Source: Raillietiella orientalis (taxonomy: Eukaryota). From it: 64,000 nucleotides of DNA. Below the pieces are notes generated by a model. It was not told the origin of the DNA. It ran no database searches and saw only the letters and a program-made list of their open reading frames with translations. Shown piece after piece: positions 3,762-54,389 of the stretch. Within the stretch, counting starts at the first letter, position 1; each line of letters begins with the position of its first letter. The position numbers and the translations under genes were made by a program. The stretch is from positions 186,001 through 250,000 of the forward strand of contig JAYWIR010000053.1 of the NCBI GenBank assembly GCA_036172245.1. Direction: 5' to 3'.

Positions 3762-3860
3762 GTGCGGAAGTGTTTTTTCCGTGCTCCTCTGCGCCTGTTG
3801 TAAAGCATTCTTTTTCGGTAGTGTTTGTGCGTGGAGCATCTGCGGTGTCCAATGGCAGAA

Positions 3861-8900: not shown

Positions 8901-9507
8901 TCAGCGGCTGGTCCACGGGTGAACTGACGGACGCCAGTACCCCTAGTGTCCAGCCGAGAGGACTGCAGAGATGGGGCGAGCTACTCGGCATCCAGCCGGA
9001 TGACCTGAAGTGGCCCCCGGTATGAATTGGATCTAGGATCCTCCCCCTGAAGTGGCAGGAGTCGGCGCTTCTGTTGTTGCATTAAGGTCTACCCTGCAGC
9101 GCACGACGCCACCACTGGACCAAAGGTCGAGTAGATCCTACTTGCATCAGGTGTGGGGAACGGGAAACTCTCCCCCACCTCCTTGTTGATTGTGCTGCCC
9201 TCCGACCCCTGTGGGAACGTCTCCGTGCCTCCCTACGGATCCAGGAGGGCAACCAGCCCAGAGACGTTTTTCGGCTTCTGTTCGTGCATGATGCCCTGCG
9301 TCCAGCCGCTGCCCTGGCTGCACTTTGCTGCGTACTCGGGATTGTGACGTACTGGAGCAACGTCGGAAGACCGAATCACGACAGGGATGCCGTCGTACTT
9401 GCAGTCCGCTACCTGCAGATTGTGACCAGATGACCCCACCTGGGGATTATACGGACGGACCTCGAGGGCATCTTGCGAAGGATGGACCCTCCTCCCAGTG
9501 GTCAGTG
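5918..9507 (+). pseudogene. C1 ORF2 (APE endonuclease-RT-CCHC); open for 731 codons, then multiple stops
   Basis: ORF 5954-8149 has WNVNG, LLQE, GDFN, SDH, WRPIT and YADD; stop at 8147 replaces a conserved Trp; downstream fragments include CIRCG..ETLPHLLVDC. Confidence 0.92.
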
Positions 9508-9714
9508 ATCCCTCCCCAACCCTCCCAAATCTTTTTGTTTTTATGTTTTATTTTTCTTTTTGTTTTTTCCCCCACCCCCTTCCGCTGCCGAGGAGAGTCG
9601 CGCAGGTCTGCGTACGGGCGACTTGGCAGGTCCAGTTGAGTTGGCCGTGGTGGGGCCTCGTACCACGAATTATATAGAATTTATAATAAACGCCTTGGCG
9701 TGACCGGGTGGCAA

Positions 9715-11180
9715 CTATCAACTTGGCATCAGCATTCGCTATTGTGATGGGACGCCAGTTCATGCTCCTCAGATCTCCTCCCTTAGGGAGAAGCCGCACC
9801 TTTGCCAAACGAAACGAGGCTGGAACGTCACCTGTCTCGAGTATCAGCAAGGTCAGTTGATGTACCAAGGGGGTTAGCTCAGCCGCGAAAGTTTGATAAA
9901 ACTACGTGGACAGGCCGTCCTCCTCTGGAGTTTTTCGCCTCTTGAGCTTTCCGATGGCCGAGATGATCTCGCCTATCGTGAAAGACTCGTCAAGGGACTT
10001 TTTCTCCTCTTCCCCGATCGCAGGAGCGCCTTCCGGAAGCAGGATTCGTGAGAAATCCCGCTCGGAAGGCGTTCGTGCGTACAGGGAGGAGTAAAAACGC
10101 CGCAGCAGACCGCGGATCTGAGCGGGTGCCGAATGCTCCTGGCCCTGATCGTCCAGCAAGCTGGCCGATCCTGACTGCCAGGCTTGCCTCTTGGCTCCCG
10201 CTTTGTATTCCGCCAGCCTGCGGATGTCGGGGGTCCTGGCGTAACGGCGAGCCCGCAGATAGGCTCGTTCGTTACGTACCCCGTCCCCAAATCCCGCAGG
10301 TAGGCGGTGCAGAGGGAACTCGTCGCCGAACTCCTGGACCGACCGTTTAAAGCGGTCTTAATCCTGGAGTGTCTGCATCCTAAAGCTCCGTATAATCATG
10401 CGGAGATGTTCCTTTGCGTCCGGGAGCTTCAGCCAGTCCCCTGGCAAACGCCAAGCTGAAAAGGGTGGGCCCATGTCGCGCGGATGGATTTCAATCAGGA
10501 TTGGTCGATGGTCGGAGAACTCGTACGGCATCTTGCAGCGCCTGCCCACACGAGTGCACAGGTGTTCATCAAGGAACACGTGATCGATGTTGTCCTCCAT
10601 CGCTGGTACACTGGCCAACAAATTACAAGTGTGCACCGCCGCGCACACCTCGTTGACCAGGTCACGCTCGTGATTCGGCCCATCCGGATTCAGACGAACG
10701 TTAAAATCGCCTGCAACCAGATGGGCATTCCGCACGCCTGCCTTGGTCAACCAGTCGCGATGGAGGGCTAGGAAAAATTCTTTCCTGCGGTGTGGCCCTC
10801 CTGTTCGTCAGGTCCGCTCCGCTCTGGGCGTAAACGTTGGTAACGATCAGGTCGATCATGTCGCACCAGCTAAGAGTCAGCTGGCCGACACGACCGTGAT
10901 CCTCGAACCGAACTACACGGGCGGCGGCCTCGATGGCGGGCCGAAGCAGGTAGGCGACACCACAACTTCTCGATGTTCCACACCGATACCACAGCCGCCC
11001 TCCGTAGATGCGTTCGATCTCGTGCGCTTGTTTTGCAGAGATCACATGGATCTCCTGCAGCAGCACAAGGTCGAACGATCCTAGAATGGCGGCCATGTCA
11101 CGTCTCCTGCCGGCGTCTGTCATTCCGTTCACGTTCCGAACCGCGATGCGCAGACGACGGCGGAAGAAGATTCCCTACAT
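9715..11180 (-). pseudogene. D1 ORF2, 5' half (endonuclease to RT motif 2)
   Basis: ORFs 10701-11132, 10358-10750 (HLVAGDFN, IDHVFL, SDH), 9902-10159 and 9548-9868 (WRPITIANADAKLI). Confidence 0.9.
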
Positions 11181-12895
11181 TACTGCCGGGAAGATGAAGG
11201 TGTGGGGAACCCGCCTCTTCCGAGGCGGGTGAAATGACCATTAGGGTTTCAGCCTCCTCAGGCACCTTGGGTACCTTTCCGGCTTCAACCCCCTCCATCT
11301 CCTCCGTGTCTGTGCGTGGTGGTCTCTCGGGTGACGATTCCCTGGATTCTCCCACGCTCATGGCACCCTCGCAGTCGGAAGTCATCTCCACGCCTTCGAC
11401 CTGGAGAGGGGCTTTCCGGGGTTTGCTGGACTTTTTTCCAGCCTTCCGGCGGGGTGCCGCGGAGATGGAAACTTGGTTTCCGGCCTGCGCTTCGGGGTCG
11501 GAAGTTACCGACTCCTCGGTGGTGGCCGGACAACTCACTGCCTTTTTGCAATCCTTGGAGCGGTCTGGCTGCAACGATGCAGCCAGCTCCTCCGCCGCAC
11601 GCTCGAAGGCGGCGTCATCGATCACGGTCTCGATGACGGACGCTTCAGCCGGTTCGCTCCCCACGCTGTTGACATTTTCAACAGTGGGTTGCTCGTCGGT
11701 GGCAGCGATTTCAACCTTGCGGCGTTCGGCGGGGACGCGTTCCACGACGACGTTGCATTCTTTTAAATTCTCGCTAACCTGCTGTTTTTTATTTTGGTAG
11801 GCGAGCTTTTTTTCGATTCGTCGTTCTTTCTTCGAATTTTTTTTCTTTTTCGCTGTGACTTCTTGCCATTCCAACACCTGACCGCTTTTGTCAATCTTTT
11901 CGGCATTCGTTGCCGGGTTGTCGGTTGAGGCCTGGACCACGGGAGTGGGTGGCACAGCTTGAGCGGCAGCCTTCACCGCCAGTTTTTTCTGAAGGAGCCG
12001 CGCGCGTTTTTTTAGGTTCCTCGCGGAAACCACGCGCACAGCGGATTGTGGACACACTTCCTTCGTGTGACCCATTGTCCCGCATACCAGGCACTATACG
12101 TTGGGGCACCTCCTTTTGAGGTGTCCCGACGTGTTGCAGAAGCCAAAGTATTTGGGCTTCCCCACGTACCAGAGGTCGACGCTTTCTCCGCCGACCACCA
12201 GATTGTGGAGAAGGGTAAAGCACTCCCGAACGGTTACACGGGCAGCCGTGAGGCCGCACTGAACTGTGGTATAGTCCTCGAAAGGACTAGGCTTGGTCCA
12301 TACTGAATGGACCGTGCCTTCTTTTCCAAACGCGGCACGTAACTGTTCTTTCCGCATCCGCGCGGTAACTCCTAAAAGGTGGACCACCATACTGTGGTCC
12401 GCCGTAACGGGAAGGAGTCTGCGTGTCCCCATTACCACGGGGGTTTTAAGCAGATGTTGGGTCAGATCTGCATGTTTGCAGATCACCTCTACGTACTGCC
12501 CCCCGCTACGAATGGTCATAGCGCAGAGCTCCTCTTCTTTAAAATCGAGAGCGCGCATATTCTTCGAAAAGGCGCGCGCACTCTCAACAGATTGCAGATT
12601 TCCTACCTTGTAGAATACTGATGAGTTATACCCCTCTTCCACATAGGCAGATAATTCCGCCGCGGCTGCAGGCGATGGCGCCGACACGACGGCGCTCCAC
12701 GCCCGCGCTGCAGCGGGGACCGGTTTTGTGGAGGCGGACTCCCCACGTCTTCGCCACTGAAGGCGACGTTGCCGCCGCCCCCTGGCACTCCACATTCTCT
12801 AGAGGCGACGTTGCCGCTGCCACCTGGCACTCCATTTCTTCAGGAGGCGACGTTGCCACCGCCCCCTGACACGTACTGGTGGTCGCGTCAGGCAT
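11180..12895 (-). pseudogene. D1 ORF1 (gag-like; N-terminal ~42-bp repeats; zinc knuckles)
   Basis: ORFs 12626-12919, 12094-12795 (WYVGKP..GHLKRRC) and 11098-12075 (GHTKEVC, AAEELAA). Confidence 0.88.
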
Positions 12896-12993
12896 TGCTG
12901 CCTGATCGACCACCACCACACACGAAGCCTACACCTAGGGACGGTTCCCGGCACGAGGAGCACCGAGAAAACACTTCCGCGATAGCCGACGTG

Positions 12994-15106
12994 AAGCTTT
13001 CGATTGCGTCGACCAGGAACTCCTTTTGGAGTTCCTGGAACGCATGGGTTTCCCGGCCGTGCTCCAGTCCTACCTGCGCTCCTGCTGGCGCAACGCGTCA
13101 ATTAATATTGGTTTCCGCGGCCGACACGTGTACGGCGTGCCAGTCCGCCGCGGTATCCGGTAGGGTGACAGCCTGAGACCCTTGCTCTTCAGCATCTACT
13201 TCGAGTTGGTGCTGAGGGCATACAGGGTAACTCTGGCAACCCTGCCGAGCTCGTGTGCCGGCACGCCTGCCGTGTTGGCCTATGCAGACGATCTTCTGCT
13301 GCTGCTTCCCAAGTCCACCCAGGCGAGTGCACTCGAGAACTTCTTCGAGTTGCTGCGCCGAGGGACGGGCCTGGAGGTGAACAGGGCGAAGTCGTCCATT
13401 GTCTTCGTCGGTTCGGCGTGGGCTGGACTGTCGTACTGGATCCGCTTGGGGATCCTAGGCGGGCAGGTGCCTCAAGTACCTCGGCGTACCGTTGGGGGAC
13501 TTCTGCGCAGCAGAAGCCCGGTCCGACCGTCTCCAAAAGGCAGCGTTGGCGATCGGTCCGTTTTAAGAAGGCAAGTTCTACTTGCAGGAACGGGCTGCGG
13601 TGTGGTCCGCGTTTGCGGCTCCGCTGCTTCGCTTCGTACTTTTTGTTTGCCCCGCCCCTTATTTTATTCGGAAACGAGCAGCGGGCCTCCTGAGGACAGT
13701 CCTTTGGGGCAAAGGGAGGTCCCGTGTGAGGCTCAAAGACTTGTGAGCTCCACGTAAGGACGGTGGACTTGGCGTACTTACGCTGGAGCGCATGAAACTG
13801 CAACGTAGATTCAGAAATCTCGCCCTCGCGGACGAATTGTGGGACGCGCCTTGGTGCGTTCCAGCACGCCTCCTGGCCCAACGAGCCTGCGGAATCGGCG
13901 GACTTTTGTCGTTTCTGTCTGCGCGCGTCTGCAGAAGAGCATACTGTGGCTCTATGCTGCGACGCATCTTCGTTGCGGTTCGGGAGAACGCCTTGATCTC
14001 CTGCCTCCCAGGGAACTACTCCGCCTGGTTGCACGAGTCAGTCTCCACCTGGGAAAAGATCCACGTTCCGGCGGGCACAAGGAACACTTGTATGAAAAGG
14101 CACGCCCGCTGGACGCTGCAGGAGATCGTGCAGTCCCACGACAAGCTTCTGTGGGCCTTGATAACCCCTCTCACCCCATTGCTGCTTTTCCTTGTGAATG
14201 CCAGGGACAGTAGCGATCAGGAAAATGGACCGTGTCCTGCACCATAGGCGGGAGGACACAATCGATAAAAGCGTGGACATCTCGGCAGCTAGCTGACGCT
14301 GCGACGCCGAGTGTCCTGCCCAACGGAATTCGACGCTGAGGCGAGCTACTCGGACTATCTCCGGAGGAGATGAATTGTCCCCCAGCGTCCTGAAACAGTG
14401 CATTTCTCCCCCTGAAATGGCAGGATGTGGCGTTGCTTGTGGTACTCTGGGGATTACCATTCAAAGCACGCCTGCACCACACCACCCGGGGGGCTGTGGA
14501 TCCTGATTGTGACCGGTGTGGGGCGAAAGAAACATTCCTCCACCTTCTCCTTGAATGCAGAGCCGTCCGCCCTTTGTGGGATCGTCTCGCGTCGATCCTG
14601 GACTTGAGCGGATGCGGACCAAAGGACGTTTTAAGGCTCCTCTTCTGTAGTGACGCCTTGGCCCCGCCCGCTAGTCTTGCAGTCCTTTGCTGCATCAGAG
14701 GAATAGTGGCGGCTTGGAACGCCAACAGAAGAAGGCGTCAGCCAACCGGCAACGCCTTACACTGAACTCTCCTTTTCGCGCGCAGTGTCTGCAAGTAGCG
14801 CCACTTAGGCGCAGAAAGGACTCAGCTTGTGCGGATCCGGAACAGGATCTAGAGGACCTGTCCACGCGCACCGTGATCCCTTCCCCGCCCTTCCACCCTT
14901 ACAACATTTGTTCCCCCCCCACATTTGAGCTTTTTTTTTATTTTTGTTTTTCCTTATTTCCCATCCCCGCGCATCGAAAGGACCTCTCCGGCATGGAGCC
15001 GGTAACCAGCAAGCTGTTTTAGAGTGGTGAACCTTTGAGTTCGCCACGCGGAATGTCATGTGTCTTATTTCAAAGAAATAAATGCCCCGGCACATCAGGG
15101 TGTGAA
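12994..15106 (+). mobile_element. Family A copy A0, right part (RT from KAFD to the 3' end), degenerate
   Basis: Resumes at AAGCTTTCGATTGCGTCGAC; YADD near 13281; CDRCG..HLLLEC; family-A 3'UTR; terminal AATAAATGCCCCGGCACATCAGGGTG at 15077-15102. Confidence 0.92.
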
Positions 15107-20691: not shown

Positions 20692-21821
20692 GCGGTTCCG
20701 GCTTCGTGCGGCGAAATCGCTACGGTCGCGATCGATAGCGCGGCACACGTTGCTGCGATCGACACTGTTGTTCCAGTCCAGTCCACTGGAAGCATTGTAG
20801 CGGCGTGCGAAAGCTTAGCCGCTGCGGTTCGGAACAATAGCGCGCCAGTTGCCGCAATCGAATCGCTTGTTACGTCACCCAAATCGCAACAGGCGGAGAA
20901 ATCCGTGATGACGTGGAACGCATCCCTGTTGCAAACTTCGCGCAAGCCGCGGAAGAGTTGGCTGCCTTCCTGAGGCAGCCCGTCAAGGCCGAGAAGAAGG
21001 CCGTTCGACGCCCGGCTACGGCAAAATACCCGGAAACCTCCGAGTCTGACGCCGAAAGCGCGAACTCGCCCTCCGTTCGCTTGCCGAAAAGAAAACATAA
21101 AAATGCAACAGGAGCACGTAGACGTGCTGTCGCCTCTCAGGAAGAGGTCGAAATGGCATCTGACAGCGAGGAAGAGTCCATGTGCGTTGCACAATGCGAA
21201 TCCGTGCCTGAGAGCATCCTTTACCAACTGTTAACAAAGTCCACGGCCGACGTTGTGAGCGATGCTCCTGAACACTCCAACGACATGGACCCGAACCACT
21301 CACCCGTCTTCTGAATAGGAGGCGGTTACTTCCACCCCACCATAACAACACCATTGCGTGTTCTCGCGTTTCCTCGCCGCTTGCAAATAACCTGTTGGAA
21401 CGTCAACGGTTTGAGCACCGACGGGAAGAGGCGAGACGTAGCCGCCATTCTGCGAGACTTCGACCTGACCCTACTGCAAGAGACCCACGTGCTCACAAAA
21501 GAAGCAGGCAAGGATTTCAAAAGAATCACAGGAGGGCGGCTAATGTGGAGGAACGGAACAGACTAATCCTCCGGAGTGGCCTTTCTGCTGGATCAGGCAG
21601 TCGAAAACTCTCTGCGTAGCGTTCGCTTCGACGGAGACGGTCGAGTTGGACAGCTTGTTCTCAAGTGGTCCGAATCGATCGCCCTCGTTGTGACGAACAT
21701 ATACGCGCCAGTGAGCAACCACGGGGCCGAGGAACGCACTACGTTTTTCGAATCCCTGCGGCGAGACTGGCTGGCTGAAGCAGGCGTACGGAGGGCGCAC
21801 CTCATTGCGGGAAATTTCAAT
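20692..21821 (+). mobile_element. Family A-like fragment A2: ORF1 3' end plus endonuclease up to G(D/N)FN
   Basis: ORF 20913-21314 (AAEELAA..KKAVRRP), 21354-21566 (ITCWNVNG, LLQETH) and 21576 onwards (HLIAGNFN). Confidence 0.88.
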
Positions 21822-22353
21822 CGAGTGCGGACATGTTTTTCTCCGCTCTCGTCTCCGGGCTTCCATCCGCTTCATCTTGGCGTCCTACATTTTGACGACG
21901 ATGTCGACCCAACCCGAAGCTACTGAAGTTGGAGAAACAGCATCCGGATCGGCAATCGCGGAACCGACGGCCGCCTCCACTTCGTCTTTCTCGCCAATGG
22001 AGAGGAGTTTTGCTGACGTTGCTGCCACAGCAGCCGTCAAAGATAAACCACTCGAGGAGTCGCAGTTGCGGGCATACGTAGCCCAAGGTTATAGACCTGC
22101 TCTCCGATATAAGGTGAGTGGTATTCTTTCTGCGCGCGACGGGAATTCGTTCAACGATGAACTGACCCGTGTTGGCGTGCGGGAGGAGGACCTTCTCGCC
22201 ATTATGCCCGTAAATAATATGAACTATTTCAAGGTGCGTTGCAAAGACGCTGCACTTGTGCAACGCTTGCTGCGCACCCCGTTGTCGATCCGTGGCCAGA
22301 AGGTTTTCCCGGCCGCCATGGGCGACTCATTTGTGGCGGAGATTTTTGACATC
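21822..22353 (+). mobile_element. Family F 5' end and ORF1 start (copy H1), inserted in sense at the GDFN motif of A2; 3' part deleted
   Basis: CGAGTGCGGACATGTTTTT 5' motif; ATG at 21901 (MSTQPEATE..LRYKVSG); near-identical to 38139-37610 on minus. Confidence 0.87.
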
Positions 22354-24413
22354 AGATTTTCCGACGTCAGACGTTCATTGAAGTTCGATAGCACTTGTCC
22401 TTACTGACCCGGAGGCGGATAAGATCCTTCACTGGCGCCGGGACGGCAAAAATAAAAGAAAACAAAAACAAAAAGAGAAAAACGTCTGGAGGGCAATGTT
22501 TCTGAGGTGGGGGAGGGAAGGAGGGGATCACGGTGCGCCGTGAGCAGGCCTTTGCATCCGGTTTCGGATGCGAACAAGTGCCGGCAAATGTTTTTGAAGT
22601 CGGCGCCAACGGCACGCTTTCTCAAAGGAGAACGCTGCCCAGTGGATGGCATTCCGGCTGGTCCTACCTCTCCTAGACGCCGTCCACTTCTCCAGGATAC
22701 CGCGTATGCAGCAGAGCACTGCTACGCTTCCGAAGGCTGGCAAGCCGTCTCGCGTCACGAGGCGTCTGAATAAGGTTTTCGGGTCACCCTCCGGAATGTT
22801 GAGGATCGTCCAGAGTCTGTCCCACATTCCGCGGAGGGCAACACACTCCAGAATCAAGTGAGAGAAGGTCTCCCTTTCCCCGCACTCTGCACAACTAGCA
22901 TCCACATTCTCCGTTGTCCAGCGAGACAGGCGTGCTCTGCTTAAAAGTCGCCACTGGAGGAGAAGCAACGCCGTCTCCTGCCACTGCAGGGGAAGGGTGC
23001 CGTTGTTCCATGAGGCTGGGGGCCACCTCACCTCCTCCGGAGGTATACCGAGCAGCGCGCTTCAGCGTAAAAGTCCGTTCCACGGGACAGTCGGGGTACT
23101 AGCGTCCGCTAGTTCCCTCGGCGTCCACGCCTTCAGCAAATTTTTCCTGCCTCCGTTGAGGCAGGACACTTCCCACGATGCCTGTTGGTGGCTTTTTTGA
23201 AGTTCCCTAAGGAAGGGCAGCACTAAGGCAAGGGGGGTGAAGGAAGCCCACAGAAGATTCCGTGGGTTGGAAACGATCAACAGGAGTGGCTGACCAGCGT
23301 GCCTCCCTCTGCGGAGGCAGGAGAAGTCCTCATCGCTGGTGTCATTGATCTTCGCCCATGCAGAAACGTACCCCTGAAGCCAAGTAGTGCAATCCGCTGG
23401 GATTCAGGAGATCCAAGGGTTGTGTCTCATCAGGGCAACCAAGTCCCGCAGCTGATGACCACAATGTTTCAGGCTGCGTTCGTTGGCTACCAAAATTGAA
23501 GTCAGTCCGAAGCAGCCGGTTGCCCTGTGAGCAAGGAGTCTTGCCGATGCATACCAGGGTGCTGTCCAAAAGTTTGCCACAAGAGCAAGTTTTCTGAATT
23601 GGTGCTGTCGCTCCATGCGCTCCAACGTCAGGAGACCAAGTCCAGCGTCCCTGCGTTTAGCGCACAAGTCTTTGAGCGGGACGCGGGGCCTCCAATTGCC
23701 CCAGAGGGCTTTTCGTATCAGGCTCCTAGTCCGTGTCCTAATTTGGTAAGGAGTAGCGCGCACAAAAAGTAGGGGGCGAAGGAGGGGGGCCGCGAAAGCG
23801 TTCCATACCGTGGCCCGTTCCTGCAAATGAAACTTGCCGTCCCGGAACGGGCCGATCGCCAGCTCCACCTTTTGTAGACGGTCGGACCAGGCTTCTGCAG
23901 AGCAGAAGTCCCCCAACGGAACGCCAAGGTACTTGATGTACCTGCCCGTGGGGATCCCCAAGCGGATCCAGTCCGACCGTCCGGCCCTCGTCGAGTCGGT
24001 GAAAAGCAACGACGATTTCGTCCTGTTTACCTGGAGGCCTGTTCCACGGTATAGCAACTCGAAGAAATCTTCGAGCGCCGATGCCTGGGTTGACCCGGGA
24101 TGCAGGAGCAGAAGATCGTCGGCATAGGTCGACACGGCAGGCGTGCCGGGACACGAGCTCGACAGGGTTGCCAAAGTCTCCCTGTATGCTCTTAGCACCA
24201 ACTCAAAGTAGATGCTGAAGAGCAGGGGGCTGAGGCTGTAACCCTGCCGGATGCCACGACGAACCGGCACGCCGAAGACGTTGCGGTCGCTGAAATTGAT
24301 ATTGATGAGCGCGAAGCGCCAGCAGGAGCGCAGGAAGGCCATTAAGACGGCCGGAAATCCCAAGCGTTCCAGGAGTTCCAGAAGGAGTTCCTCGTCGACG
24401 CAATCGAAAGCTT
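22354..24413 (-). mobile_element. Family E 3' half (E1): RT from KAFD to a truncated 3'UTR
   Basis: ORF 23404-24363 (RQGYSLSP, YADD, KYLG) and 22528-23031 (CAECG..HLILEC, ending RIRNRMQRPAHGAP). Confidence 0.9.
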
Positions 24414-26393
24414 TACGTCAGCTAGAGCGGACGTGTTTCCTCGGTGCTCCTCGTGCCGAAAACCGTCCCTAGGTGTAGGCTTCGTGTGTGGTGGTGGTCG
24501 ATCAGGCAGCAATGCCTGACACGACCACCAGTGCGTGTCAGGGGGCTGTGGCAACGTCGCCTCCTGAAGGAATGGAGTGCCAGGTGGCGGCGGCAACGTC
24601 GCCTCTAAAGAAGGTGGAGTGCTAGGAGGAGGCGGCAACGTCGCCTACACTGGCGAAGGAGGTGGGGGCGTCCGCATCTACAAAATCGGTCCCCGCTGCA
24701 GCGCGGGCGTGGAGCGATGTCGTGTCGGCGCCATCGCCTGCAGACGCGGCGGAATTGTCGGCCTATGTGGAGGAGGGGTACAACCCCTCATTGTTCTACA
24801 AGGTAGGCAAATTATATTCTTCTGAGAGTGCACGCGCCTTTTCGAAGGGGATGCGCGCTCTCGATGTTAAAGAGGAGTAGCTCTGCGCTATGACCATTCG
24901 TAGCGGGGGGCAGTACGTAGAGGTGATCTGCAACCATGCAGATCTGGCCCAAAGTCTGCTTAAAATCCTTGTGGTAATGAAAGCATGCAGGCTTCTTCCT
25001 GTTACGGCGGACCACAGTATGGTGGTCTACCATTTAGGAGTTACCGCGCGGATGCGGAAAGAACAGATACGCTTCGCGTTGGGAAAAGAAGGCACGGTCC
25101 ATGCAGTATGGACCAAGCCTAGTCCTTTCGAGGACTATACCACAGTTCAGTGCGGCCTCACGGTTGTCCGTGTAACCGTTTGGGAGGGCTCTACCCTTCC
25201 CCACAAACTGGTGGTCGGCGGAGTAAGCGTCGACCTCTGGTACGTGGGTAAGCCCAAATACTGTGGCTTCTGCAACACGTCGGGACACCTCAAAAGGAGG
25301 TGCCCCAACGTACAGTGCCAGGTATGCGGGACAATGGGCCACACGAAGGAAGTGTGTCCACAATCCGCTGTGCCCGTGGTTTCCGCGAGGAACCTAAAAA
25401 AACGCGCGCGGCTGCTACAGAAAAGGCTGGGGGCGAAGGCTGCCGCTCAAGCTGTGCCACCCACACCCGTGATCCAGGCCGAAGCCGACACCCCGGCAAC
25501 GAATGCCGAAAAGATCGACAAACGCGGACAGGTGTCGGAATGCCAAGAAGTCACAGCGAAAAAGAAGAAAAATTCGAAGAAAGAACGACGAATCGAAAAA
25601 AAGCTCGCCTACCAAAATAAAAAACAGCAGGTTAGCGAGAATTCAAAAGAGAGCAACGTCGTCGTGGAACGCGTCCCCGCCGAACGCCGCAAGGTAGAAA
25701 TCGCTGCTACCGACGAGCAACCCACTGTTGAAGATGTCAACAGCGTGGGGAGCGAACCGGCAGAAGCGTCCTTCATCGAGACCGTGATAGATGACGCCGC
25801 CTTCGAGCGTGCGGCGGAAGAGCTGGCTGCATAGTTGCAGCCAGACCCCTCCAAGGCTGGAAAAAAGGCAGTGAGGCGTCCGGACTCCACCGAGGAGTCG
25901 GTAACTTCCGACCTTGAAGCGCAGGACGGAAACCAAGTTTCCATCTCCGCGGCACCCCGCCGGAAGGCTGGAAGGAATTCCAGCAAACCCCGGAAAGCCC
26001 CTCTCCAGGTCGAAGACGTGGAGATGACTTCCGACAGCTAGGGTGCCATGAGCGTGTGAGAATCCCGGGAATCGTTACTCGAGAGACCATTACGCACAGA
26101 CACGAAACAGATGGAGGGGGTTGAAGCCGGAAAGGTACCCAAGGTGCCTGAGGAGGCTGAAACCCTAATGTTCATCTCACCCGCCTCGGAAGAGTCGGGT
26201 TCCCCCACACCGTCATCTTCCCGGAAGTAATGCCGGAAATCTCCTCCCGCCGTCGTCTGCGCATCGCCGTTTGGAACGTGAACGGAATGACAGACGCCGG
26301 CAGGAGACGATACATGGCCGCCATTCTAGGATCGTTCGACCTTGTGCTGCTGCAGGAGATCCATGTGATCTCTGCAGAACAAGCGCAGGAGAT
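24414..26393 (+). mobile_element. Family D 5' part (D2): 5'UTR, ORF1 pseudogene 24512-26230 and start of ORF2; inserted antisense at KAFD of E1
   Basis: Colinear with D1 12993-11015; TAATG stop-start at 26228-26232; CGFCNTSGHLKRRC and CQVCGTMGHTKEVC knuckles. Confidence 0.9.
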
Positions 26394-29300
26394 TTCTCAC
26401 CCGGTCACGCCTGGGCGTTTATTCCATATAACATAACCAAAAAAAGCAATTTTACAAAATAAACCAGTTAAGAACCAAACTCCCAACCGACGACTGAACA
26501 AGAATAAAGAGAATATTGCTGCCACGCAGGGCAGAGTAACAGTTTTGTGAACGATGTGGGGGAGCCGGGAACGCAAAGAAACCAAAATAAAATAAAAACA
26601 ATGAATAAGGAGGACGGGATAAGGGTCTTTGGGATCGCTTTGGAAGACACAAAAATAAAAGCATGGGCACCGGAAGTTTTACCGAAAGAACGAGGACGCG
26701 GTATATGTGGGCGAGAGGTCGCAGGGGTCAACGGATTACGCAGTTCTCAGAGGTGTGTAAACCGGCGATGTTTGCCGGTGATGTCCTAATTCACCTTGTC
26801 ACGAAGATGAGACCACCTGGAAGCCTTCTTCATGAATTGAGCTGCAAGCAGGTGAGCCTCCCTTTGCTGCGATGACAACTCCAGGGCGTAGCGGGACTTT
26901 ACGATGGCGCGAATGCAACACATGGTTGCGACAATCGCGCCAACCGAAAGTCCATTTCTGCTGAAGAAGCGCCGCAGCACATCATTGGCAGTGCCTCCTT
27001 GTGGCATGATGGCCGAAGTGAGCCTTCGCCACAGTTCCCGGAGGTCACCGCAGTCCAGCAAAACGTGCGGAAAAGACTCGATCTCTCCGCACCTTAAACA
27101 GTTTGCAAAGCAGCTCCCCCGGAAGCGAGGCTTGGCTGCCTTTTTCAGTCTAATGCACAATGTAAAAAGAGCAGCACATCTTGTTTCCACTTAAGGGGGA
27201 ACACAGAGCTGTCCAAACAAACGGGGGTACCACTACCTCTCCGGGGGGCACACTTAAATGTTCGCTCCACCGAAGCAGTCCCTTCGCCCGATTCCGAGGT
27301 GTGGCGGCTTGCACCAGCTCCTTTGTGGTCCAGCTACGGAGGAGCTTACTGACTACCGCTATTCTGCAGGAGAGCTCCCATTCCGCCGGTAGGCAACCGT
27401 CGTTGCTTTCCCTGAGGGCACACAGCGCTGCGGCGATTGGTGTGACGGCCAGACGATCAGACAACTTCTTGTCCTGCATGACTTCGTCCATTTGATGACT
27501 GAGGAGAAGTCGCAGGCGTCGAAGATCTTCCGGGCGCGTTCCTTCGGAAGCTGCCCACGATGAAAAAGATTCCTGCCGCCATGCATTAATGTTCATGGGG
27601 CGGCAGGAGATCCAGCTTTGGGCTTCCAGCAGTGAGGACAGCTTCCTCAGCGGGAAGCCAAACCCTATTCTGGTGTGCCGAAAGTGGGGTAGCAACGAAA
27701 GCAGTCCCTCGCTTCCCGTGCAGCGCCTCAGTATAAGGCGTGCGGGTAAGCACCACGGCGTACACCACAGCTTGGCACAGAGCCGCAGCATGCGGAACTG
27801 AACCTGCAGTTCGATGCTGTTTAAGTCGAGGATGCCCAAGCCTGCATCCTGACGCGCCGCCACCAAGTCTTTAAGTCTAACACGGGATCTTGCAGCGCCC
27901 CACAACGCTTTGCGTAGAAGGCGCTGCGCCCAGACTTTGACTTCCTGGGGGGGTGGACAAACAAAAAACAGGGGGCGGAGGAGGGGAACAACCAAGGTGT
28001 TCCAGATGCAGGCCCGTTCCTGCAAGACGAACTCGCCTTCTGAAAACGTACCAAGTGCAAGCTCTGCCTTCCGAAGGCAGTCCGACCACGCTTCTGAGAT
28101 GCAGAAGTCGCCCAACGGCACGCCAAGGTACCTGAGCTACCTGTCGGTGGGGATCCCCAGGTCGATCCAGTCAGACTGCCCCTCCCACGTCGCACCCACC
28201 GGAACAACCATACACTTACTGCTGTTAACGCTCACGCCCGCACCGCGACGAATCAACTCAAAGAAGTCTTCAAGCGATGTCGCCGGGGTGGACATGGGCA
28301 ACAGGAGAAGCAGGTCGTCGGCATAGTCTGCCACGGCCGGCGTACCTGGACAGGAGCTCGGCAGGTTGGCTAGCGTCACCCTGCCTAATTCCTCGTCTTA
28401 CCGGCACGCCGTAAACGCGACAGCCACAGATAACAATGGATGTAATCGCGTGGCGCCAGCAGGAGCGCAAGTACGCCAACAGCGATGCCGGAAGACCCAG
28501 ACGTTCCGAAAGCTCAAGAAGAAGCTTTTGGTTCACGCAATCGAAAGCTTTGTGCAGATCGACTGCAACCGCCAAGGCTCCCGGTGTCTCCCTTTGCGTC
28601 CCGCGCCTCCGTCGGTAAGAGATCGGAAGCGTCGCTTCCGCACGACGATCCACCGCCACACGATGCTGCAATTGCAGTCATGTGCAGATGAACAAGAGAT
28701 TCGCGTCCATGGACCGCCCAGGAACAGCGTACGTCTGCTCCGGTCTTACCAAGGATTCCGCGATCCTACCCATCCGCGCCACCTAAAGTGTCGAGAACAA
28801 CTTGACGTCCGAATTCACTAATGTGATCGGACGCCAGTTGTTCAGTTGGCGCAAATCTCCGCCTTTCGGCAGTAGACGCACCTTCGCTGAGCGAAACGAG
28901 GCGGGGACATCGCCCGAGTCTCGCATCAGCGACGAGAGTTGGAGCACAAGGCGGATGAGCTCCGCCGCAGAACACTGAAAGAATTCCGCAGGGAGCCCAT
29001 CTTCGCCTGGCGCTTTTCGTCTCTTGAGCAATGAGATGGCCGAGGAAATTTCCTCTGCCGTGTAGGGCTCATCAAGACGCGCCCGTTCCTCCTCGTCTAC
29101 AACAGGTGCATCAATCGGCAGAAGCAGCCGGGAGAGGCTGCGTTTCGTCTGTGCCTCTGCATACAGAGAAGAGTGATAGCGCCTGACTATCACTCGCACG
29201 TCGGCTGGAGCCGAGCATTCCTGGTCCTGGTCGTCGAGCAGAACTGTCGCCCCTGACTGCCACACCTGGCGCTCGGCCTTGGCCTTGTACTCGGATAATC

Positions 29301-30890
29301 GACCAACGTCCGCGCGCCTGGAAAAGGAGCGGGCCTGCAGAAAATCTCTGCTGTTGGCTACGCCCTCTCCGAAGCCGCGCGGAAGCTGGTGCAAGGGAAA
29401 CCGGCACCATAACTCGCGGACCGATCTTTACAGATCGTCCCAGTCCTCCAGCTCACTTATGGCAAAGTCGAGGAGGTACTGGCGAATATACTCAGCCGCC
29501 TCCAGGTTGCTTAGCCAGTCTGCCGACATCCTTCAAAAACAGTTTGGAGGCCCCTTGCCTGGCGGGAGCAACTCGAACTCGAGCCTGTTGTGGTCTGAAA
29601 GCACGGACGGCATGGCACCTCTCCGACACACTCGACAGAGCAAGTGTTCATCAAGGTATACGTGGTCCGGCGTTGCTGCCATAACAGGGTCGCTAGCGAA
29701 CAAGTTGCAGGCGTGCACGGACGCGCACATCTCTTCCGCTAGCAACTTTTCCCTTTTCTGGGATCTATTCTCGGAAAGCAGGTGGACGTTAAAGTTCCCC
29801 GCAATGAGATGGGCCACAGTAGGGTGAGATCGAGTGAGTTACTGGCTTTGAAGGGTACCGAAGAACTCAATCCTTTCGGTCCATCGTCCAGCACCGCTCG
29901 GCGCGTACTCGTTGGTTACGACAAGGTCGATCGAGTCGGACCACTTGAGTACAAGCTGTCCCACTCGGCCTTCCGTGTCGAAACGAACGCTGCGCACCGC
30001 TCCCGCCAAAGTTCCTTGCACGAGGAAAGCGACGCCGCACGTACGTGCAACGCCGCACCTATAAAGTAGCGTTCCGCCCGCGCGCCGTACGATTTCGGCA
30101 GCCTGCTCTCCGGAGATGCTGTGAATCTCCTGCAGGAACGTCAAGTCGAAGGCGGGCAGAGCGTCAGCCAATAGTCGCCTCTTCTCCTCGTGTTGGAGCC
30201 CGTTGACGTTCCAAGAGGTTAAGGCAACACGACGAGAAGACGCAATTACCCTCATGACGGCTGGGAAAGCGAGGCCGTGGTGCTCGCCTCACCCGGCGAG
30301 CGGGCAGTAAGCAGCACGACGGGCTGGAGGGCGCACTCGCCACCGGCCTCAACTGTGCTGCACGTAATCGGGTGCTCCTCCCCGGGTGCAGAACCTGTGG
30401 GTTCCGGGGTGAGCACTCGCCGTTTCGCGGCGAGTGTGTCACGCCTCTGGGCTTGAGCCCTGCGTGCGCTCGCTCTTGCGCGAGTGACGCGTCGTTCAGC
30501 GGCGCTATCGGACTCCTTTGTGGAGTCAGATGCTCGCACGATCGACGTGCGCTTGCATCCATCCGATTGCACCGGGATAGCCTTCCCGGCGGTCACAGAA
30601 GCGGACTTGCACGCGTTGAAGGCGCAGGCTTTTTCCTTGGAAGAGGCACAAGCAGCGCGTGTTTTCGAATTCCCGCGACTGCGTTTTCCTTTGGAAGAGC
30701 TCAGGGATTTATGTTGCGTAGCTTTTTTTGGAGATTTTTCTTTCCTCCTGTCCACAACCTGCTATTCGCCTCCGCGATTTTCGGAAGCTTCCGCGACAGA
30801 AGTTGCGGAAACCTCCAGGATTTTGGCTGCGTTCTCTGGGGGCGTTGCCTTCGCAACGCCTTTAAAATGCGGCAAAGGATTCACCTTCTT
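26394..30890 (-). mobile_element. Family F copy F1: ORF1 3' end, degenerate ORF2 (30255 to about 26786) and complete 3' end; inserted antisense in the D2 endonuclease
   Basis: ORFs 29839-30255, 29533-29817, 28783-29394, 28137-28379 (YADD), 27150-28121 and 26786-27190 (CLRCG..HVLLDC); terminal AATAAACGCCCAGGCGTGACCGGGTG at 26423-26398; internal deletion just after QGD near 28378. Confidence 0.9.
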
Positions 30891-30899
30891 GGAAGTCGG

Positions 30900-32707
30900 G
30901 AGATTGCTCCTCTCCTGTCGAGTCGGAGACATAACAACCGATGACCAGCGTCTTACTCATTTGGCATACGCTGATGATCTACTCTTCTTTATCAAGGCAG
31001 AGAGAAATCAACAAGCGTTTCTGGATGTGGTAGACCTGATGGATCAAGGCCTGGGTCTAAAGATCAACGCCCACAAAAGCCAGCTCTTGCCCGTTGGAAT
31101 CTTCGATCTCTCCACTCTAGCGGCGAGAGGATTCCGAACGGTGGACAAGGCCAAGCACCTGGGTGTCTACATTGGCGACGTCTCCGCGTCGAAGCTATTG
31201 TGTACCGAGATTTTAGGGAACACGGCCAAGGAAGCAGTCAAGTACACCCGAACGGACCTTGGAATGAAGAGAAAAGCCAACATATGGAACGGAGTACTCC
31301 TTCCGAAAGTGCTCTTCGGGGCGGCCTTTGCGAGGATGAACAAGGAAACCACGAGGGAGTTCGACAAGCTGCAGAGAAAAACACTGTGGGGCCACTATCG
31401 CCCAAGAGTCCGACTAAAACCCCTGTGTCGTCCCAGGGAAAAAGGCGGTTCCGGGATGAAGTCGCTTGCACACTCCATTGAGATCATGGATACGCGACAC
31501 ATCCTGGACATTGCCACTCACTGGGATGACTGGCCGTATGCGGCGCACAGGGCCTACGCGTTGCTGTTGAACAACTCGAAAGTCCTGATGACTGCGCTAC
31601 TAGGCCGTGCAGGCGTGTGGAAAAAAATCGACCCAACCTGGACGAGGAAGCAACGGCTGGTGCGGAAGCACAAAATCAAGATCGTGCCGAGAAGTAGGGA
31701 ACTCTGTCAGGACGAGTCCATCCTGGTGATCTCTTGGATGCTTCCTGTCCCGCCGGCCACGAGAAGCTGAATCCACCAGCGGTCCAGAGTTACCCTTCAA
31801 CGAATCCAGGAGTGGAAATGAGAAGGGTACCTACATCACACTCGTATACTTAGGTATATAGAGATGATGTTAGGAAGGTTTACTCACATGACTCGCGAAG
31901 TGTGGTTCAACCACAACGACTTTGCGTGGTCCAGGGTAACCAAAACAAACCTCCGAAGACTAATTCAAGAAGAACACAGTGATATCAGTGCCCTCCTGGA
32001 AGCCGCCGATCGCTACGGGAGTGACCGAATCAACCTGTCAGCGATTGGCACGACGCTCTGGAGAAGTGACCTTCCGCCAGGCACCCAGGATGACCTCCTG
32101 ATGTTTTATCATGGAGGAATTCAGAGTGGGTCCCGATTACAGCACTACACCGGAACAAGGGAAGATCCAGACTGCACAGCATGTGGAAACATCGACACGA
32201 GACTTCACGTCTTGACGTGTCCCACATTGCTGCATGACTGGCTGAACCTGAAAAGGATCATCGGACTTACGAACAGATCCGTAATTGAGATCCTCGCCGG
32301 GATGTTACAGGGGAATGGTAATGTTCCCTGTTACAATCCCATGGTGAGGACGACCATCGCCCTCTTCATCACCGCCATACTTGTGCGGTGGGGTTAAATG
32401 AGGAAACCCAGAAGAGCCGCACCACCGATGGAGATCCTACAAGGGCACCTCAAGAGGGAAATCGGCATTAGAAACTGTGGGAAAATCCAAGCCTGGACGT
32501 ACCGATTCATCCTGAACAGGATAGAAGACGACGCCCGGGACCAAACAGTAGGAATCCCACCATGAGTGCAGAACTTGTGAGAACCCAAGGACTTCATAGT
32601 GGTAAAAAAAAGTGCTAATGGTATGGATGAGATTATAGTGTGAATGTTTTTGTGGAAAAATTTTAGAAAAATAAATTTACCCCACCCCTCGTGGGACATG
32701 GGGAAAA
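30900..32707 (+). mobile_element. 5'-truncated divergent LINE 3' part (probably family B): RT YADD to CCHC and 3' end
   Basis: LTHLAYADDLL, KINAHKS, KHLG, KGGSG, CTACGNIDTRLHVLTC; ends AATAAA..CCCAC-CCCTC-GTGGG..GGGG-AAAA. Assignment to B is inferred from similar divergence and adjacency. Confidence 0.85.
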
Positions 32708-35054
32708 CTACCGAGTCGGTAAACTTGCTTCGCGGCTCAAAGTATTGTGCGCTCGACAACTTAATCAGTTTATTCTGCTTGTGTGTGCCCGGAGAGGGGA
32801 AGTTTTCCAGACGAAACTACAAAAGAAGCGGCGAGGAGATCGCGGCAAAAGACCTGCAGTGGTCCCGTGCAGCAAGACCAGCTGCCAGGATGCAGGCACC
32901 TAGAGGAGGACTGGAGAGACCGTCGTCCCCCATGGAAGCCATGGAGGTAACGTGCGGCAATGGCGAGGCGGTGGCAGGCATTTCGAGGATCGCGCCCGCG
33001 GCGGGCTTTGCTGCGCCGGCGGCGGCGATGTCAAGGGTCGTACCCGCGGCGACGACGGCGGAGGTCGTGCCTACGGCGGCGACGCCGAGGATCGTGCCCG
33101 CGGCGGGTAAGGTCGCGCCTTCCGCGTCGATGCCGAGGGTGCCGCCCGCGGCGGCAACGGTGGCGACGTCGAGGGTTGCGCTCGGAGCGGCGGCGTCCCA
33201 GGCAGGACCCGCGGGCGTCCACGCGGTTCAGGGCGAGCCGCCATGTTGTTCGGCTGCAGCGGCGCAGCCCTTTTTTCCTGCGTCGGTGGCGGCTGGACAA
33301 GCGAGTGTCCACCCACCAAGAAAATTCGGGAAGCCGCTATGAGGTAGAATCCAAAAGGTGGATCGGCCGATCGTGGAGTTAGGGCCGAATGTGAAGCCCA
33401 TCATTTTCAAAACTGGGCTGATGAAGTTCAATAATATCAGGAAGGTGTATCTGTTCCTCGATAAAACGGACATGAATTTTAATCGCATACAGGCGATCTT
33501 ACCAGCAAACAACGGGTTCACAGTCTTCACAGACTGTGAAAAGATGAGAGAGCGATTGATCCAGAAGGGGATCAATATACAAGGGAGGATGGTAGTTGGT
33601 GTTGGCGAGATTCCATACACAACCGTGTTTCTGAACGGCATTTCCATCCTCACACCTCAACTAACTGTTTGGAAATTTTTGGAGCAGAATGGGTAAGTTC
33701 TGGACCTTGGATTCCAGAACTTCTCTGGAAATATATTTTCTGGCGACATGATCGCCAAAATAAAGTTGAAAGAGGGAGCTGTCATCCCAGGATTAGCCGT
33801 TGTTGACGAACAATCCCAGGGACTGAACGTGCGTTACCGGCAACAACCCATATTCTGCCCCGGGTGCAAGCAGTTCGGCCACAGGGCCGGCGCTTGCCCA
33901 ACGTGTCGTTGTTTCCGCTGCGGCAAAGTAGGACATCAAGTCCGAAACTGCCCGCAGCCGGTGGTGTGCTCCTTCTGCAAGAAACACGGACATGCCTAAT
34001 GGAGCTGTTTGGAGTTTTAAACTGCAGAAGGATTCGAGGTCTCTCTCCCGTGAGAGAGATTAACACCAAGGAGGCGGAACATCCTCAGAAGGCAGGAAGG
34101 CCGAAGAAGGTGAAAGAAGCCGTCCCGGTATCGGAAGACTGCTTCATACAGCTAGTGAAGAAAGGAAAGAGGACGATGCTCGTCAAGGAGCAAGAAACCC
34201 CTCTTATCCAGCAAGGTGAAGAGCAAGAAGGCGAGAAGATGGATATAGCGCAGGAAGGCGCGGAAGAAGAAATAGCCAAAGCCACTCCGGTGTCGCAGGA
34301 GGCCCTGCAATCTACGGAGGAGTTCGCATCACTGGCTAATGAAGTCCTGGATGTGCAGAGCGGCCACCAGCAAGAGAAAATCTTGCAGAAGATCTGCAAT
34401 GCACAGGAGAAAGTCAACCAGGATTTGAATGTCACCGAGAGCGAAAAGCTTGAGGAGCAGCTCCTCGACGTAAAGGCAAACTTCGGCGCCAAGGTCCAGA
34501 TAGAGACGCTATCTCGAAAACTGATCGCGCGGGCCGAACACTCGACGGAGGAGGCGGAAGTAACCGACCTCACCGGAACAGAGAGTGACGCAGGCAGCGA
34601 GAAGCCCGCTGCTTCTTCATTGTCTGTAAGAGCACGCTCTCTCAGACAGAAGAATCTCAGGAAGGCCAAGAAATAGGTCTTCCTCTTTTATGGCCTCTTC
34701 CCTATCGACCGCTAGGAAGCTGAACATCGCCTCCTGGAATGTAAACGGTATGATCGACCAGGGAAAAAGAACAAGGATTGTGCGGACCATCGCACAACAA
34801 GACATAGTGTGCCTGGAGGAGACCCACAAGATGGGTCTCGAGATTAGTCAGCAAATGGAACGGCGATTCAACAGCAGATTTTTGTTAGCGATGGAGAACG
34901 GAACGCGCAGGGTGTGGCGGTCTTAATCAAGAACAACTTGGCCCCCACTATTCTGGAAGTGTTCTCTCCCCAACCCGGACGAATCATCGGCGTGCGGCTG
35001 GCCTGGTCCGCTACTGTTCACCTTATCCTGGTGAACGTGTACGTTTCGCACAGG
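32708..35054 (+). mobile_element. Family B 5' part (B1): ORF1 pseudogene (about 32890-34676, three zinc knuckles) and endonuclease start (34690 onwards)
   Basis: CPGCKQFGHRAGAC, CFRCGKVGHQVRNC, CSFCKKHGH; SWNVNG..CLEETH; paralogous to 55712-58450 on minus. Confidence 0.88.
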
Positions 35055-36245
35055 TGCACCATTGTGGTTATCAGCTGCGGGACTTGGTTGCCCTGATGAG
35101 ACACAACCCTTGCATCTCCTGCACTACCTGGCTTTAGGGGTCCGTTTCTGCATGGGCGAAGATCAATGGCATTAGCGATGAGGACTTCTGCCTCTGCAGA
35201 GGGAGGCAGGCTGGTCAGCCACTCCTGGAGATCGTTTCCAACCCACGGAAACTTCTGTGGGCTTCCTTAACCCCCCTTGCCCCAGTGCTGCCCTCCCTAA
35301 TGGAAGTTCGGGACAGCCAGCAGGAGGGATCGTGGGAAGTGTCCTGCCTCATCGGAGGCAGGAAAAAATCGATGAAGGCGTGGACGCCGAGGGAACTAGC
35401 GGACGCTAGTACCCCGAGTGTCCCGCCGAACGGACTTTTACGCTGGGGCGCGCTGCTCGGTATACCTCCGGAGGAGGTGAAGTGGCCCCCAGCGTCATGG
35501 GACAACGGTACTTTTCCCCTGCAGTGGCAGGAGACGGCGTTGCTTCTGCTCCACTGGGAACTTTTAAGCAGAGCACGCCTGTCTCGGTGGACAACGAAGA
35601 ATGTGGATGCTAGTTGTGCAGAGTGCGGGGAAAGGGAGACCTTCCCTCACTTGATTCTGGAGTGTCTTGCCCTCCGCGAAATGTGGGACAGACTCTCGTC
35701 GATCCTCAACATTCCGGAGAGTGACCCGAAAAATTTATTCTGACGCCTCCTGACGCGAGACGGCTTGCCAGCCTCCGGGAGCGTAGAAGTGCTCTGCTGC
35801 ATACGCGGTATCCTGGAGAAGTGGACCGCGTCTAGGAGAGGAAGGACCAGCCGGTATGCCATCCACTGGGCAGCCATCTCCTTGGAGAAAGCGTGCCGTA
35901 GGCGCCGACTTCGAAAACATTTGCCGGCACTGGTTCGCATCCGAAACCGGATGCAAAGGCCTGATCACGGCGCACCGTGATCCCCTCCCTCCCTCACCCT
36001 CCCCCAAAAACATTGCCCTCCAGACGTTTTTCTTTTTTTTGTTTTTGTTTTCTTTTATTTTTCCCGTCACGGCGCCAGTGAAGGACCTTATCGGCCTCCG
36101 GGTCGGTAAGGACAAGTGCTACTGCACTTCTGAACTGAACTTCTGACGTCGTAAAAAGAAAAATTTTAACAGCATAGACTTTATTACAAAATTTTGTAAT
36201 GTCGAAACTTTAGTAATAAGAGCCCCGGGTTACCCGGGTGAACAA
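35055..36245 (+). mobile_element. Family E 3' fragment (E2) with complete 3' end, antisense to H2
   Basis: ORFs 35285-35743 and 35765-35980 match E1; terminal AATAAGAGCCCCGGGTTACCCGGGTG-AACAA at 36215-36245. Confidence 0.9.
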
Positions 36246-45101: not shown

Positions 45102-45109
45102 TGAAGATC

Positions 45110-54359: not shown

Positions 54360-54389
54360 CATTCCTTTAATGCTTCGCCAAACCTATAT

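Follow-up and report, generated by a model that had tools for sequence, protein, structure and literature searches.

LINE families in the window

We analysed a stretch of 64,000 nucleotides from Raillietiella orientalis (contig JAYWIR010000053.1, positions 186,001 to 250,000), called the window below, which on the evidence of its sequence is a nest of L1-type long interspersed nuclear elements (LINEs) from at least two clades. Families are denoted by letters and their copies by letters with numbers; F1, F2 and Q stand apart from the A/C/E group as a separate clade. Our subject is the F lineage, whose ends repeatedly adjoin the codons of GDFN, a conserved motif of the endonuclease (EN), in LINEs of the A/C/E group.

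The window has a G+C content of 55%, a self-BLAST of it gives 94 repeat pairs, and its Pfam matches on either strand are to Exo_endo_phos, RVT_1, zf-RVT and zf-CCHC. For the intact open reading frame (ORF) at 5855-8146, which encodes EN and reverse transcriptase (RT), the best solved-structure match is human L1 ORF2p (E = 1.4e-44, for the RT), with ExoIII/APE nucleases also matched; in a comparison with PDB entries, the EN of the window ORF2 aligns with residues 8-159 of 1vyb. The LIAGDFN of the window ORF2 is aligned to the ICGDFN of the solved ExoIII/APE nucleases, so the interrupted codons described below are those of a conserved APE motif. The Asp and Asn of GDFN are catalytic in APE nucleases. 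As to known LINEs, the solved structures matched were those of human L1 ORF2p and of R2.

The elements have the features of the L1 group: an ORF1 of CCHC type, an ORF2 encoding EN and RT, a C-terminal zinc-binding region, and L1 ORF2p as closest solved relative. By Pfam, three ORF1s contain zf-CCHC, and zf-RVT is present in four elements, among them A1, X1 and X2; the translation of the H2 ORF1 contains two CX2CX4HX4C knuckles. An RNA recognition motif was assumed for ORF1, and none was detected there.

A preliminary description of this DNA had treated F as one family. It is instead a clade of distinct families: amino-acid (aa) identity is 63% between F1 and F2, 59% between F2 and Q, and 55% between F1 and Q. 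Identity between the F clade and the A/C/E/M/P group is mostly 45-55% aa, reaching 60-66% in comparisons confined to the conserved RT stretch (Ax, X1). The F-clade ORF2 carries an APE-type EN and an RT, with Exo_endo_phos in F2 (29842-30288) and RVT_1 in F1 (59964-60872) and in F2, and tblastn aligns both domains lengthwise over F1 and F2. The hosts interrupted by F-lineage sequence at GDFN (A2, C2 and E3) are three families within the A/C/E group.

The families share the form of both their termini. At the 5' end, the pattern GSRSACRTGTTTYY has 8 matches in the window against 1.3 expected, seven of them true termini. These seven full-length 5' termini, from at least five families, lie at 3764, 12967, 15118, 21827, 24427, 38121 and 40422 and show a GCGGAC[G/A]TGTTTTT-like motif, suggesting that a 5' end or promoter element is conserved in families only 50-60% identical in protein. 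Homology to the 5' termini of six further full-length elements marks the start of the H inserts as a genuine 5' terminus. The 3' terminus has the form AATAAA...CCGGGTG followed by 0-5 A, and long poly(A) is absent. Such 3' termini lie at 1418(-), 9710, 15102, 20686, 26398(-), 36240, 43418, 54355 and 62697; their uniformity fits stringent recognition of the 3' end by the RT.

Recurrent junctions at the GDFN codons

Four junctions of F-lineage sequence with other LINEs had been reported in the preliminary description, and on reading the sequence we found all of the strings and coordinates to be correct. At 21821|21822, host A2 stops in its GNFN codons (21810-21821) and the insert, H1, opens with CGAGTGCGGAC. 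At 38140|38139, on the minus strand, host C2 stops in its GDFN codons (38151-38140), and the start of the insert, H2, is identical to the start of CGAGTGCGGAC. The claim that an F 3' end lies at the same motif in a third host also stands: at 62701|62702, the F1 3' terminus GTGACCGGGTG (to 62697), extended by AAAA, adjoins ATTTCAAC of host E3. The fourth junction, 26393|26394, is the 3' terminus of F2 on the minus strand. It is real, and the next letters on the F2 strand are ATCTCC as reported, but it lies not at GDFN but at residue 77 of the EN of host E2, in antisense. The F2 target as reconstructed from E1 is G^ATCTC, resembling G^ATTTC.

Joining at the same nucleotide and in a single orientation is thus found at three of the four F-clade junctions in the window and at the flank of one read contig (see below), all of them sense. 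The 5' junction falls after the 8-mer ATTTCAAY in H1 and H2, and the 3' junction falls before it in F1, which is the geometry of a target-site duplication (TSD).

We searched the window with the ORF2 of 5855-8146 (tblastn) and obtained 14 EN-bearing fragments. Three are broken at residues 176-178, the GDFN position (ends at 21821 and 38140, start at 62701); eight, the G' copy included, run through this position, and two are broken elsewhere, at residues 77 and 140. All three GDFN breaks are sense-oriented, and all are at ATTTCAAY. A fragment at 56470-56021 ending at residue 179 was considered as a further break and rejected, as G' encodes CDLN there and its ORF continues. At 56040-56070 (minus strand), the G/G' family has CDLN in the EN where other families have GDFN.

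A regular-expression search found seven other GDFN-type strings: GACTTCAAT, GACTTTAAT, GATTTCAAT (in A1, empty), GATTTTAAC, GACTTCAAC, which is the own motif of F1 and of Q, and AACTTTAAC, the own motif of F2. ATTTCAAY itself occurs at 11 sites in the window against 3.7 expected.

As a control for chance, 18 junctions (nine 3' termini and nine 5' ends) were distributed uniformly at random along a 6-kb host, in either of two orientations, in 200,000 trials. At least one triple within 12 bp arose in 0.24% of these trials and two triples never did; the control assumes uniform placement, with no preference for a short motif in the model.

At both H junctions the host EN frame extends 34 codons into the 5' untranslated region (UTR) of F (21822-21926; 38139-38035). 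It stops about 28 nt past the ATG of the F ORF1, which is in a different frame. By its layout, such a read-through frame would be compatible with co-transcription with the host LINE or re-initiation from it. A near-length protein search with the resulting 44-residue tail (host GDFN plus translated F 5'UTR) gave no candidate.

A full-length F element

The preliminary description had assigned the 5' pieces (H1, H2) and the 3' pieces (F1, F2) to one family by the similarity of their ORF1 tails. We could not confirm this: in BLAST, the best match of the H2 tail upstream of F2 was 27 bp (E = 0.07), and upstream of F1 it was 26 bp (E = 0.22). A link is provided by read contigs, among the 11 of 385 pieces and 8 of 176 loose ends listed. 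In one contig (record 4; 3755 bp, depth 15), sequence matching 38167 to 36244 (H2) at 96% is followed by 122 other nucleotides and then by EN and RT sequence 81-85% identical to F2 in nucleotides. This contig contains no X element. Because this contig joins the H ORF1 to an F2-like ORF2, a full-length, X-free element exists. Ahead of the F 5' end the contig has 28 nt of flank, which align to the GDFN flank of C2; by this alignment we regard the contig as one more copy next to GDFN-type sequence.

The contig ties H to an F2-like ORF2 only, not to F1. The idea that H, F1 and F2 are parts of one element was rejected, since the contig matches H2 at 96% and F2 at 81-85%, and the hosts A2 and E3 differ in family. 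Two further read runs gave one contig each and added nothing. Exact-pattern scans of public metagenome and genome contigs with the F 5' terminus gave 0 matches each, and searches for related loci with the conserved part of ORF1 gave 591 and 542 pattern matches, none confirmed. In a near-length protein search with residues 30-300 of the F ORF1, none of 2450 candidates reached E <= 0.001.

The contig also bears on whether the junctions could be artefacts of assembly, with repeats misjoined at a conserved motif. The region is highly repetitive, and the read runs that contain it may be the assembly's own sample. However, a host-F junction is spanned by a contig built independently from k-mers, misjoins would be expected inside shared repeats while the junctions here are sharp boundaries between unlike and like sequence, and nests in other parts of the window come apart cleanly into insertions with TSDs. 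We regard an artefact as scarcely credible.

Origin of the two H insertions

The preliminary description held that the same insert 5' end lies at the identical GDFN nucleotide in two hosts of different families, and a global alignment of the H1 and H2 loci in 50-bp bins bears this out. Upstream of the junction, identity is 42-70% (11 bins); downstream it is 78-96% (11 bins), and 84-96% over the first 500 bp (the first 10 bins). Over the last 60 host nucleotides, A2 matches A1 at 54/60 positions and C2 matches C1 at 49/60, while A2 matches C2 at 44/60. The last diagnostic difference between the hosts is 8 nt from the junction.

Downstream, each H insert is soon met by an antisense element of family X. 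The complete 3' terminus of X2 (36222-36242, plus strand) cuts the H2 ORF1 close to its end. In H1, 1.45 kb are deleted between F position ~531 and a point inside the X1 3'UTR, and X1 and X2 are 90% identical over 1115 bp. An X in both H1 and H2 implies either shared descent from one X-bearing copy or exchange of sequence between the two. The arrangement is most simply explained by an X-bearing F copy that was retrotransposed twice; alternatively, gene conversion may have acted between the inverted H1 and H2 copies, 16 kb apart. Either history still requires two separate joinings of an F 5' end to GDFN codons.

A third history, raised in outline in the preliminary description as an objection to targeting, is that H1 and H2 are a single integration, one X-bearing F insertion copied between hosts at the DNA level by inverted segmental duplication, ectopic recombination or gene conversion. 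It would account for the X elements of one family (90%) in both, 16 kb apart and inverted, and the join of the G element to X2 shows that secondary microhomology rearrangements have occurred locally. We nevertheless consider copying improbable, because the flanks are family-specific to within 8 nt of the junction. At the motif, the hosts share no stretch longer than 6+8 nt, which would not suffice for homologous exchange between partners 60-70% identical, so that a crossover within 8-14 nt, very unlikely on these alignments, would be needed. Copying would also leave unexplained both the F1 3' junction in a third host and the X-free contig copy with its GDFN-type flank.

The G|X2 join itself (35040-35070, compared with 56080-56110 and 23440-23470) is a microhomology patch of the form CAGG-TGAAACAT-TGTG-like. 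As aligned, it indicates a secondary microhomology-mediated rearrangement or a 5' junction.

A second recurrent site at the KAFD codons

F is not the only family to recur at a conserved coding motif. The first 15 kb of the window (1-15102) are a cleanly resolvable nest of three levels, with an A-type host interrupted by an E element that is itself interrupted by C1 (junctions 1413/1414, ~3757, 9710/9711 and ~12990). Segments M (3821-1414) and E1 (12990-9711) are the halves of one E element divided by the full-length C1 (~5.95 kb), whose 13-bp TSD, CTATCAACTTGGC, lies at the antisense AKLIA codons of the RT when the junctions are compared with uninterrupted copies. Likewise, A0 (1-1413) and Ax (12991-15102) are the halves of one A-type host divided by the E element, with an 11-bp TSD, AAGC[A/T]TTCGAT, at the KAFD codons of RT motif A. 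Head to tail with this host is A1, whose 5' end lies 7 nt from the A-type 3' terminus at 15102. The complete insertions with TSDs of 11 and 13 bp show that classical target-primed reverse transcription (TPRT) operates in these elements.

The 5' end of E2 (24418) lies at the same nucleotide, antisense to the KAFD codons, in a different host, X1 (24403-24432 compared with 12967-13005). Between the two loci, the hosts are ~78% identical and the E elements ~90%. Two of eight KAFD-type sites are occupied. On these comparisons E is a second candidate for a family that homes to a motif.

These insertions also weigh against a chimeric origin, in which the RT would have switched from the 5' end of the F RNA to another LINE's mRNA at GDFN, so that the supposed hosts were co-inserted. 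In keeping with a switch, A2 and C2 are both 5' portions (ORF1 plus EN to GDFN), with the C2 5' end complete, and tblastn found no downstream halves of A2 or C2 within the window. However, the F 5' end (CGAGTG...) shares no microhomology with the host letters after AAY (CTCCGC in A1 and C1) that could steer repeated switching to one nucleotide, and a switch does not explain a 3' end adjoining the same 8-mer. The complete E insertion with a TSD at its motif is a genuine target integration. We think a chimeric origin very improbable.

Proposed mechanism

We propose that the F lineage (H1, H2, the record 4 contig and F1) integrates sequence-specifically, by ordinary TPRT, into a conserved LINE coding motif, the GDFN codons of the other clade, in sense orientation; we put the probability of this reading at about 0.6. 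The APE-type EN of F would prefer a sequence that coincides with the GDFN codons in the EN gene of the other clade and would nick the bottom strand opposite G^ATTTCAAY. The 3' end of the F RNA (...GTGACCGGGTG plus a few A; GGGTG(A)n) would then be reverse-transcribed from the nick, and the top strand would be cut about 8 nt downstream of it. The expected full-length product would be host...ATTTCAAY | F | ATTTCAAY...host. GDFN is strongly constrained in the protein of every LINE, and each new LINE copy would offer a fresh target without a host gene being hit. The data show the junctions with their orientation, the differences between the hosts, the geometry and a full-length copy; the nick positions, a role of the EN in determining specificity, and a benefit for F are inferred. 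F might, as the preliminary description proposed, disable competitors and gain a renewable safe haven.

Several observations weigh against this proposal. The sample is small: three junctions and one contig, from one locus and one sample. Because H1 and H2 share an antisense X located at or close to the ORF1 end, they do not count as fully independent insertions. On the 3' side, the evidence for GDFN comes from F1, which is a separate family (63% aa to F2); the 3' end of F2, which among the window elements is closest to the H lineage, lies elsewhere in the EN and in antisense. The contig flank is only 28 nt long and is placed by alignment. The TSD ATTTCAAY proposed in the preliminary description fits the geometry, but it is pieced together from several elements, and the window contains no complete F copy flanked on both sides. 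Eight of the 11 ATTTCAAY sites are empty, including the intact GDFN site of A1 at 17341, and, of the nine canonical 3' termini, the other six are scattered over their hosts. The earlier claim that F targets the GDFN codons of other LINEs stands for the recurrence at one nucleotide, and is weakened by F2 and by the shared history of H1 and H2. Because F2 sits at the look-alike G^ATCTCC and most ATTTCAAY sites are empty, the data indicate that the specificity is a preference and not absolute.

An alternative account involves no real homing: F would have only a short nick preference (~R^ATYTC), GDFN would be its best-conserved instance in a region made almost wholly of LINEs, and the recurrence would be a by-product of context and small numbers. 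In the F2 site G^ATCTCC, 4 of the first 6 target bases agree with the GDFN site (the AT.TC core), ^AT opens the targets of E and F alike, and the surroundings are entirely LINE sequence, in which the full 8-mer is mostly unoccupied. A motif of 5-6 nt would, however, be frequent on the two strands of each 6-kb host, yet three of four junctions and the contig share one position and orientation. The rarity of triples under random placement also speaks against it, to the extent allowed by a uniform control in which no short motif was modelled. We judge this account unlikely.

The F clade may be protected from its own EN by its codons, as F-clade copies have GAC TTC AAC or AAC TTT AAC where the occupied targets have GAT or AAT followed by TTC AAY. 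ATTTCAAY is missing from the own motif in 3/3 F-clade copies, but it is also missing in 3/4 uninterrupted non-F copies, and the case for self-immunity by choice of codons is no more than suggestive. More speculatively, and in our estimate doubtful, the window may hold a guild of LINEs in which the EN of each family is tuned to the codons of a different invariant motif of its rivals, with F at GDFN in sense and E at KAFD in antisense. If so, LINEs would parasitise one another, each new copy would be a landing site, and clusters would be self-renewing; F copies in sense orientation might also be expressed from the promoter of the LINE that hosts them.

If the proposal for F is correct, the catalytic-motif codons of other LINEs would be a new class of target, one that cannot drift because its owner needs it, and the window would offer a concrete case of one transposon parasitising another. 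It would supply a mechanism at the level of sequence for the build-up and confinement of LINE-only clusters, such as some algal centromeres. It would also point to natural APE-type endonucleases with specificities of 8-12 nt (GDFN and KAFD codons), which bears on the evolution of EN specificity.

Comparison with known systems

TPRT with TSDs of variable length is established for L1, and the human L1 EN has a loose TTTT/AA preference, its elements ending in a poly(A) tail. The window elements resemble human L1 in ORF2p and EN (8uw3, 8sxt and 1vyb are the best solved-structure matches of the window ORF2, E ~1e-44 for the RT); unlike human L1, they end in a GTGACCGGGTG-type terminus with 0-5 A, and their sites recur. 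The trypanosome LINEs ingi/L1Tc insert repeatedly at a defined position in the coding sequence of a multigene family, the retrotransposon hot spot (RHS) genes. Their target is a cellular gene family, whereas that of F is the catalytic motif of another retrotransposon.

Among LINEs with known targets, the Tx1 clade includes Tx1L, which inserts into the piggyBac-derived Tx1D, Keno, which inserts into U2 small nuclear RNA genes, and Kibi and Koshi, which insert into microsatellites, while the R1 clade inserts into 28S ribosomal DNA (PMC4640811, PMC4494074). The specificity of target-specific APE-type LINEs is attributed to the EN, and transposons are among the targets (PMC4640811, PMC4494074). 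In its features, F is like the Tx1- and R1-clade LINEs: it has an APE-type EN and an RT and is joined to one nucleotide of a multicopy target in fixed orientation. It differs in that its target is the catalytic-motif codons of autonomous LINEs and in that its specificity looks leaky. The known targets of site-specific LINEs are RNA genes, microsatellites, telomeric repeats and a non-autonomous DNA transposon.

Zepp and ZeppL of green algae are L1-type elements that form nested clusters by insertion into existing copies (PMC8226300; nesting is also treated in 10.1101/2025.03.28.645958). The window elements are likewise of L1 type and nested LINE in LINE. Zepp is described in PMC8226300 as targeting its own copies and leaving mostly 5'-truncated 3' ends, with no codon-level target in that description; in the window, distinct families are hit at defined coding positions and many copies are full-length. 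Self-nesting of the Zepp type was not what we found, since the targets belong to other families (45-55% aa) and at least seven 5' termini are full-length. Nested long terminal repeat (LTR) retrotransposons of plants also insert into other transposable elements with positional preference; in contrast to the window LINEs, they are of LTR type and use an integrase, and no catalytic-motif target is stated in the abstract (PMC6911290). In a search of open-access literature we found no report of a LINE that specifically targets the catalytic-motif codons of another LINE, subscription literature and Repbase reports lying outside this search.

Features of the window

The elements discussed above are listed in Table 1.

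Table 1. Positions of the hosts, F-lineage pieces and neighbouring LINEs in the window
Feature	Positions	Strand	Description	Basis and context
Host A2	20692-21821	+	A-type LINE; ORF1 tail and EN up to the GNFN codons	tblastn EN residues 11-178 at 21318-21821 and ORF1 residues 425-525 at 20907-21209; 77% aa to A1; 5' side cut by A1, whose 3' end lies at 20686 and is followed by five A to 20691
H1	21822-22353	+	F-lineage full-length 5' end; 5'UTR of ~75 nt and ORF1 N-terminus	ORF1 matches 21927-22380; 3' limit set by the 1.45-kb deletion reaching into X1
X1	22357-24417	-	Antisense A/X-type LINE; ORF2 from RT motif A to the 3'UTR without the last ~90 nt	tblastn residues 76-694 at 24414-22555; Pfam RVT_1, zf-RVT; 5' side cut by E2 at the KAFD codons
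E2	24418-26393	+	E-type LINE; full-length 5' end, ORF1, EN to residue 77	Antisense at the X1 KAFD codons; interrupted by the F2 3' end
F2	26394-30531	-	F-clade LINE; ORF1 tail, ORF2 (EN, RT), 3' terminus GTGACCGGGTG then AGAA	tblastn residues 7-658 at 30327-28342; 5' limit from F1 homology; junction in E2 at G^ATCTCC
X2	35051-36242	+	X1 family; ORF2 C-terminus and complete 3' terminus AATAAG...CCCGGGTGAA	Antisense near the H2 ORF1 end; 5' side joins G at the microhomology patch
H2	36243-38139	-	F-lineage 5'UTR and nearly complete ORF1; cut by X2	ORF 36187-38034, of which the last ~55 nt are X2
Host C2	38140-40440	-	C-type LINE; 5' end, ORF1, EN to the GDFN codons	tblastn EN residues 6-178; ORF1 translation; 70% aa to C1
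F1	58521-62701	+	F-clade LINE; ORF1 tail, ORF2, 3' terminus GTGACCGGGTG to 62697, then AAAA	tblastn residues 17-764 at 58779-61028; C-terminal part 60447-62354; Pfam RVT_1; 5' side truncated or interrupted, beside the G' 5' end (58346)
Host E3	62702-64000	+	E-type LINE from ATTTCAAC (DFN codons) past the window end	tblastn residues 176-609 at 62701-63996; 82% nt and 72% aa to E1
E comparator	1414-12990	-	Complete E-type insertion, split by full-length C1 (~3757-9710, +)	Host is an A-type LINE, 1-1413 and ~12991-15102; E antisense at the KAFD codons

A scan of the whole window against Rfam, 5' self-cleaving ribozymes included, returned nothing at the gathering threshold; one chance-level microRNA match (E = 2.2) lies near the H2 5' end. 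We sought tandem repeats in 44-56 kb and further F-clade breaks in 43-58 kb and found none. Recognisable LINE domains are sparse in 44600-55300, which is AT-richer in places and has a further LINE 3' terminus at 54355. The highest summed contig depth of the read-covered region (55-80) is at 31364-32671, within a diverged plus-strand element bearing an RT (ORF 30457-31767), which seems far commoner in the reads than its neighbours.

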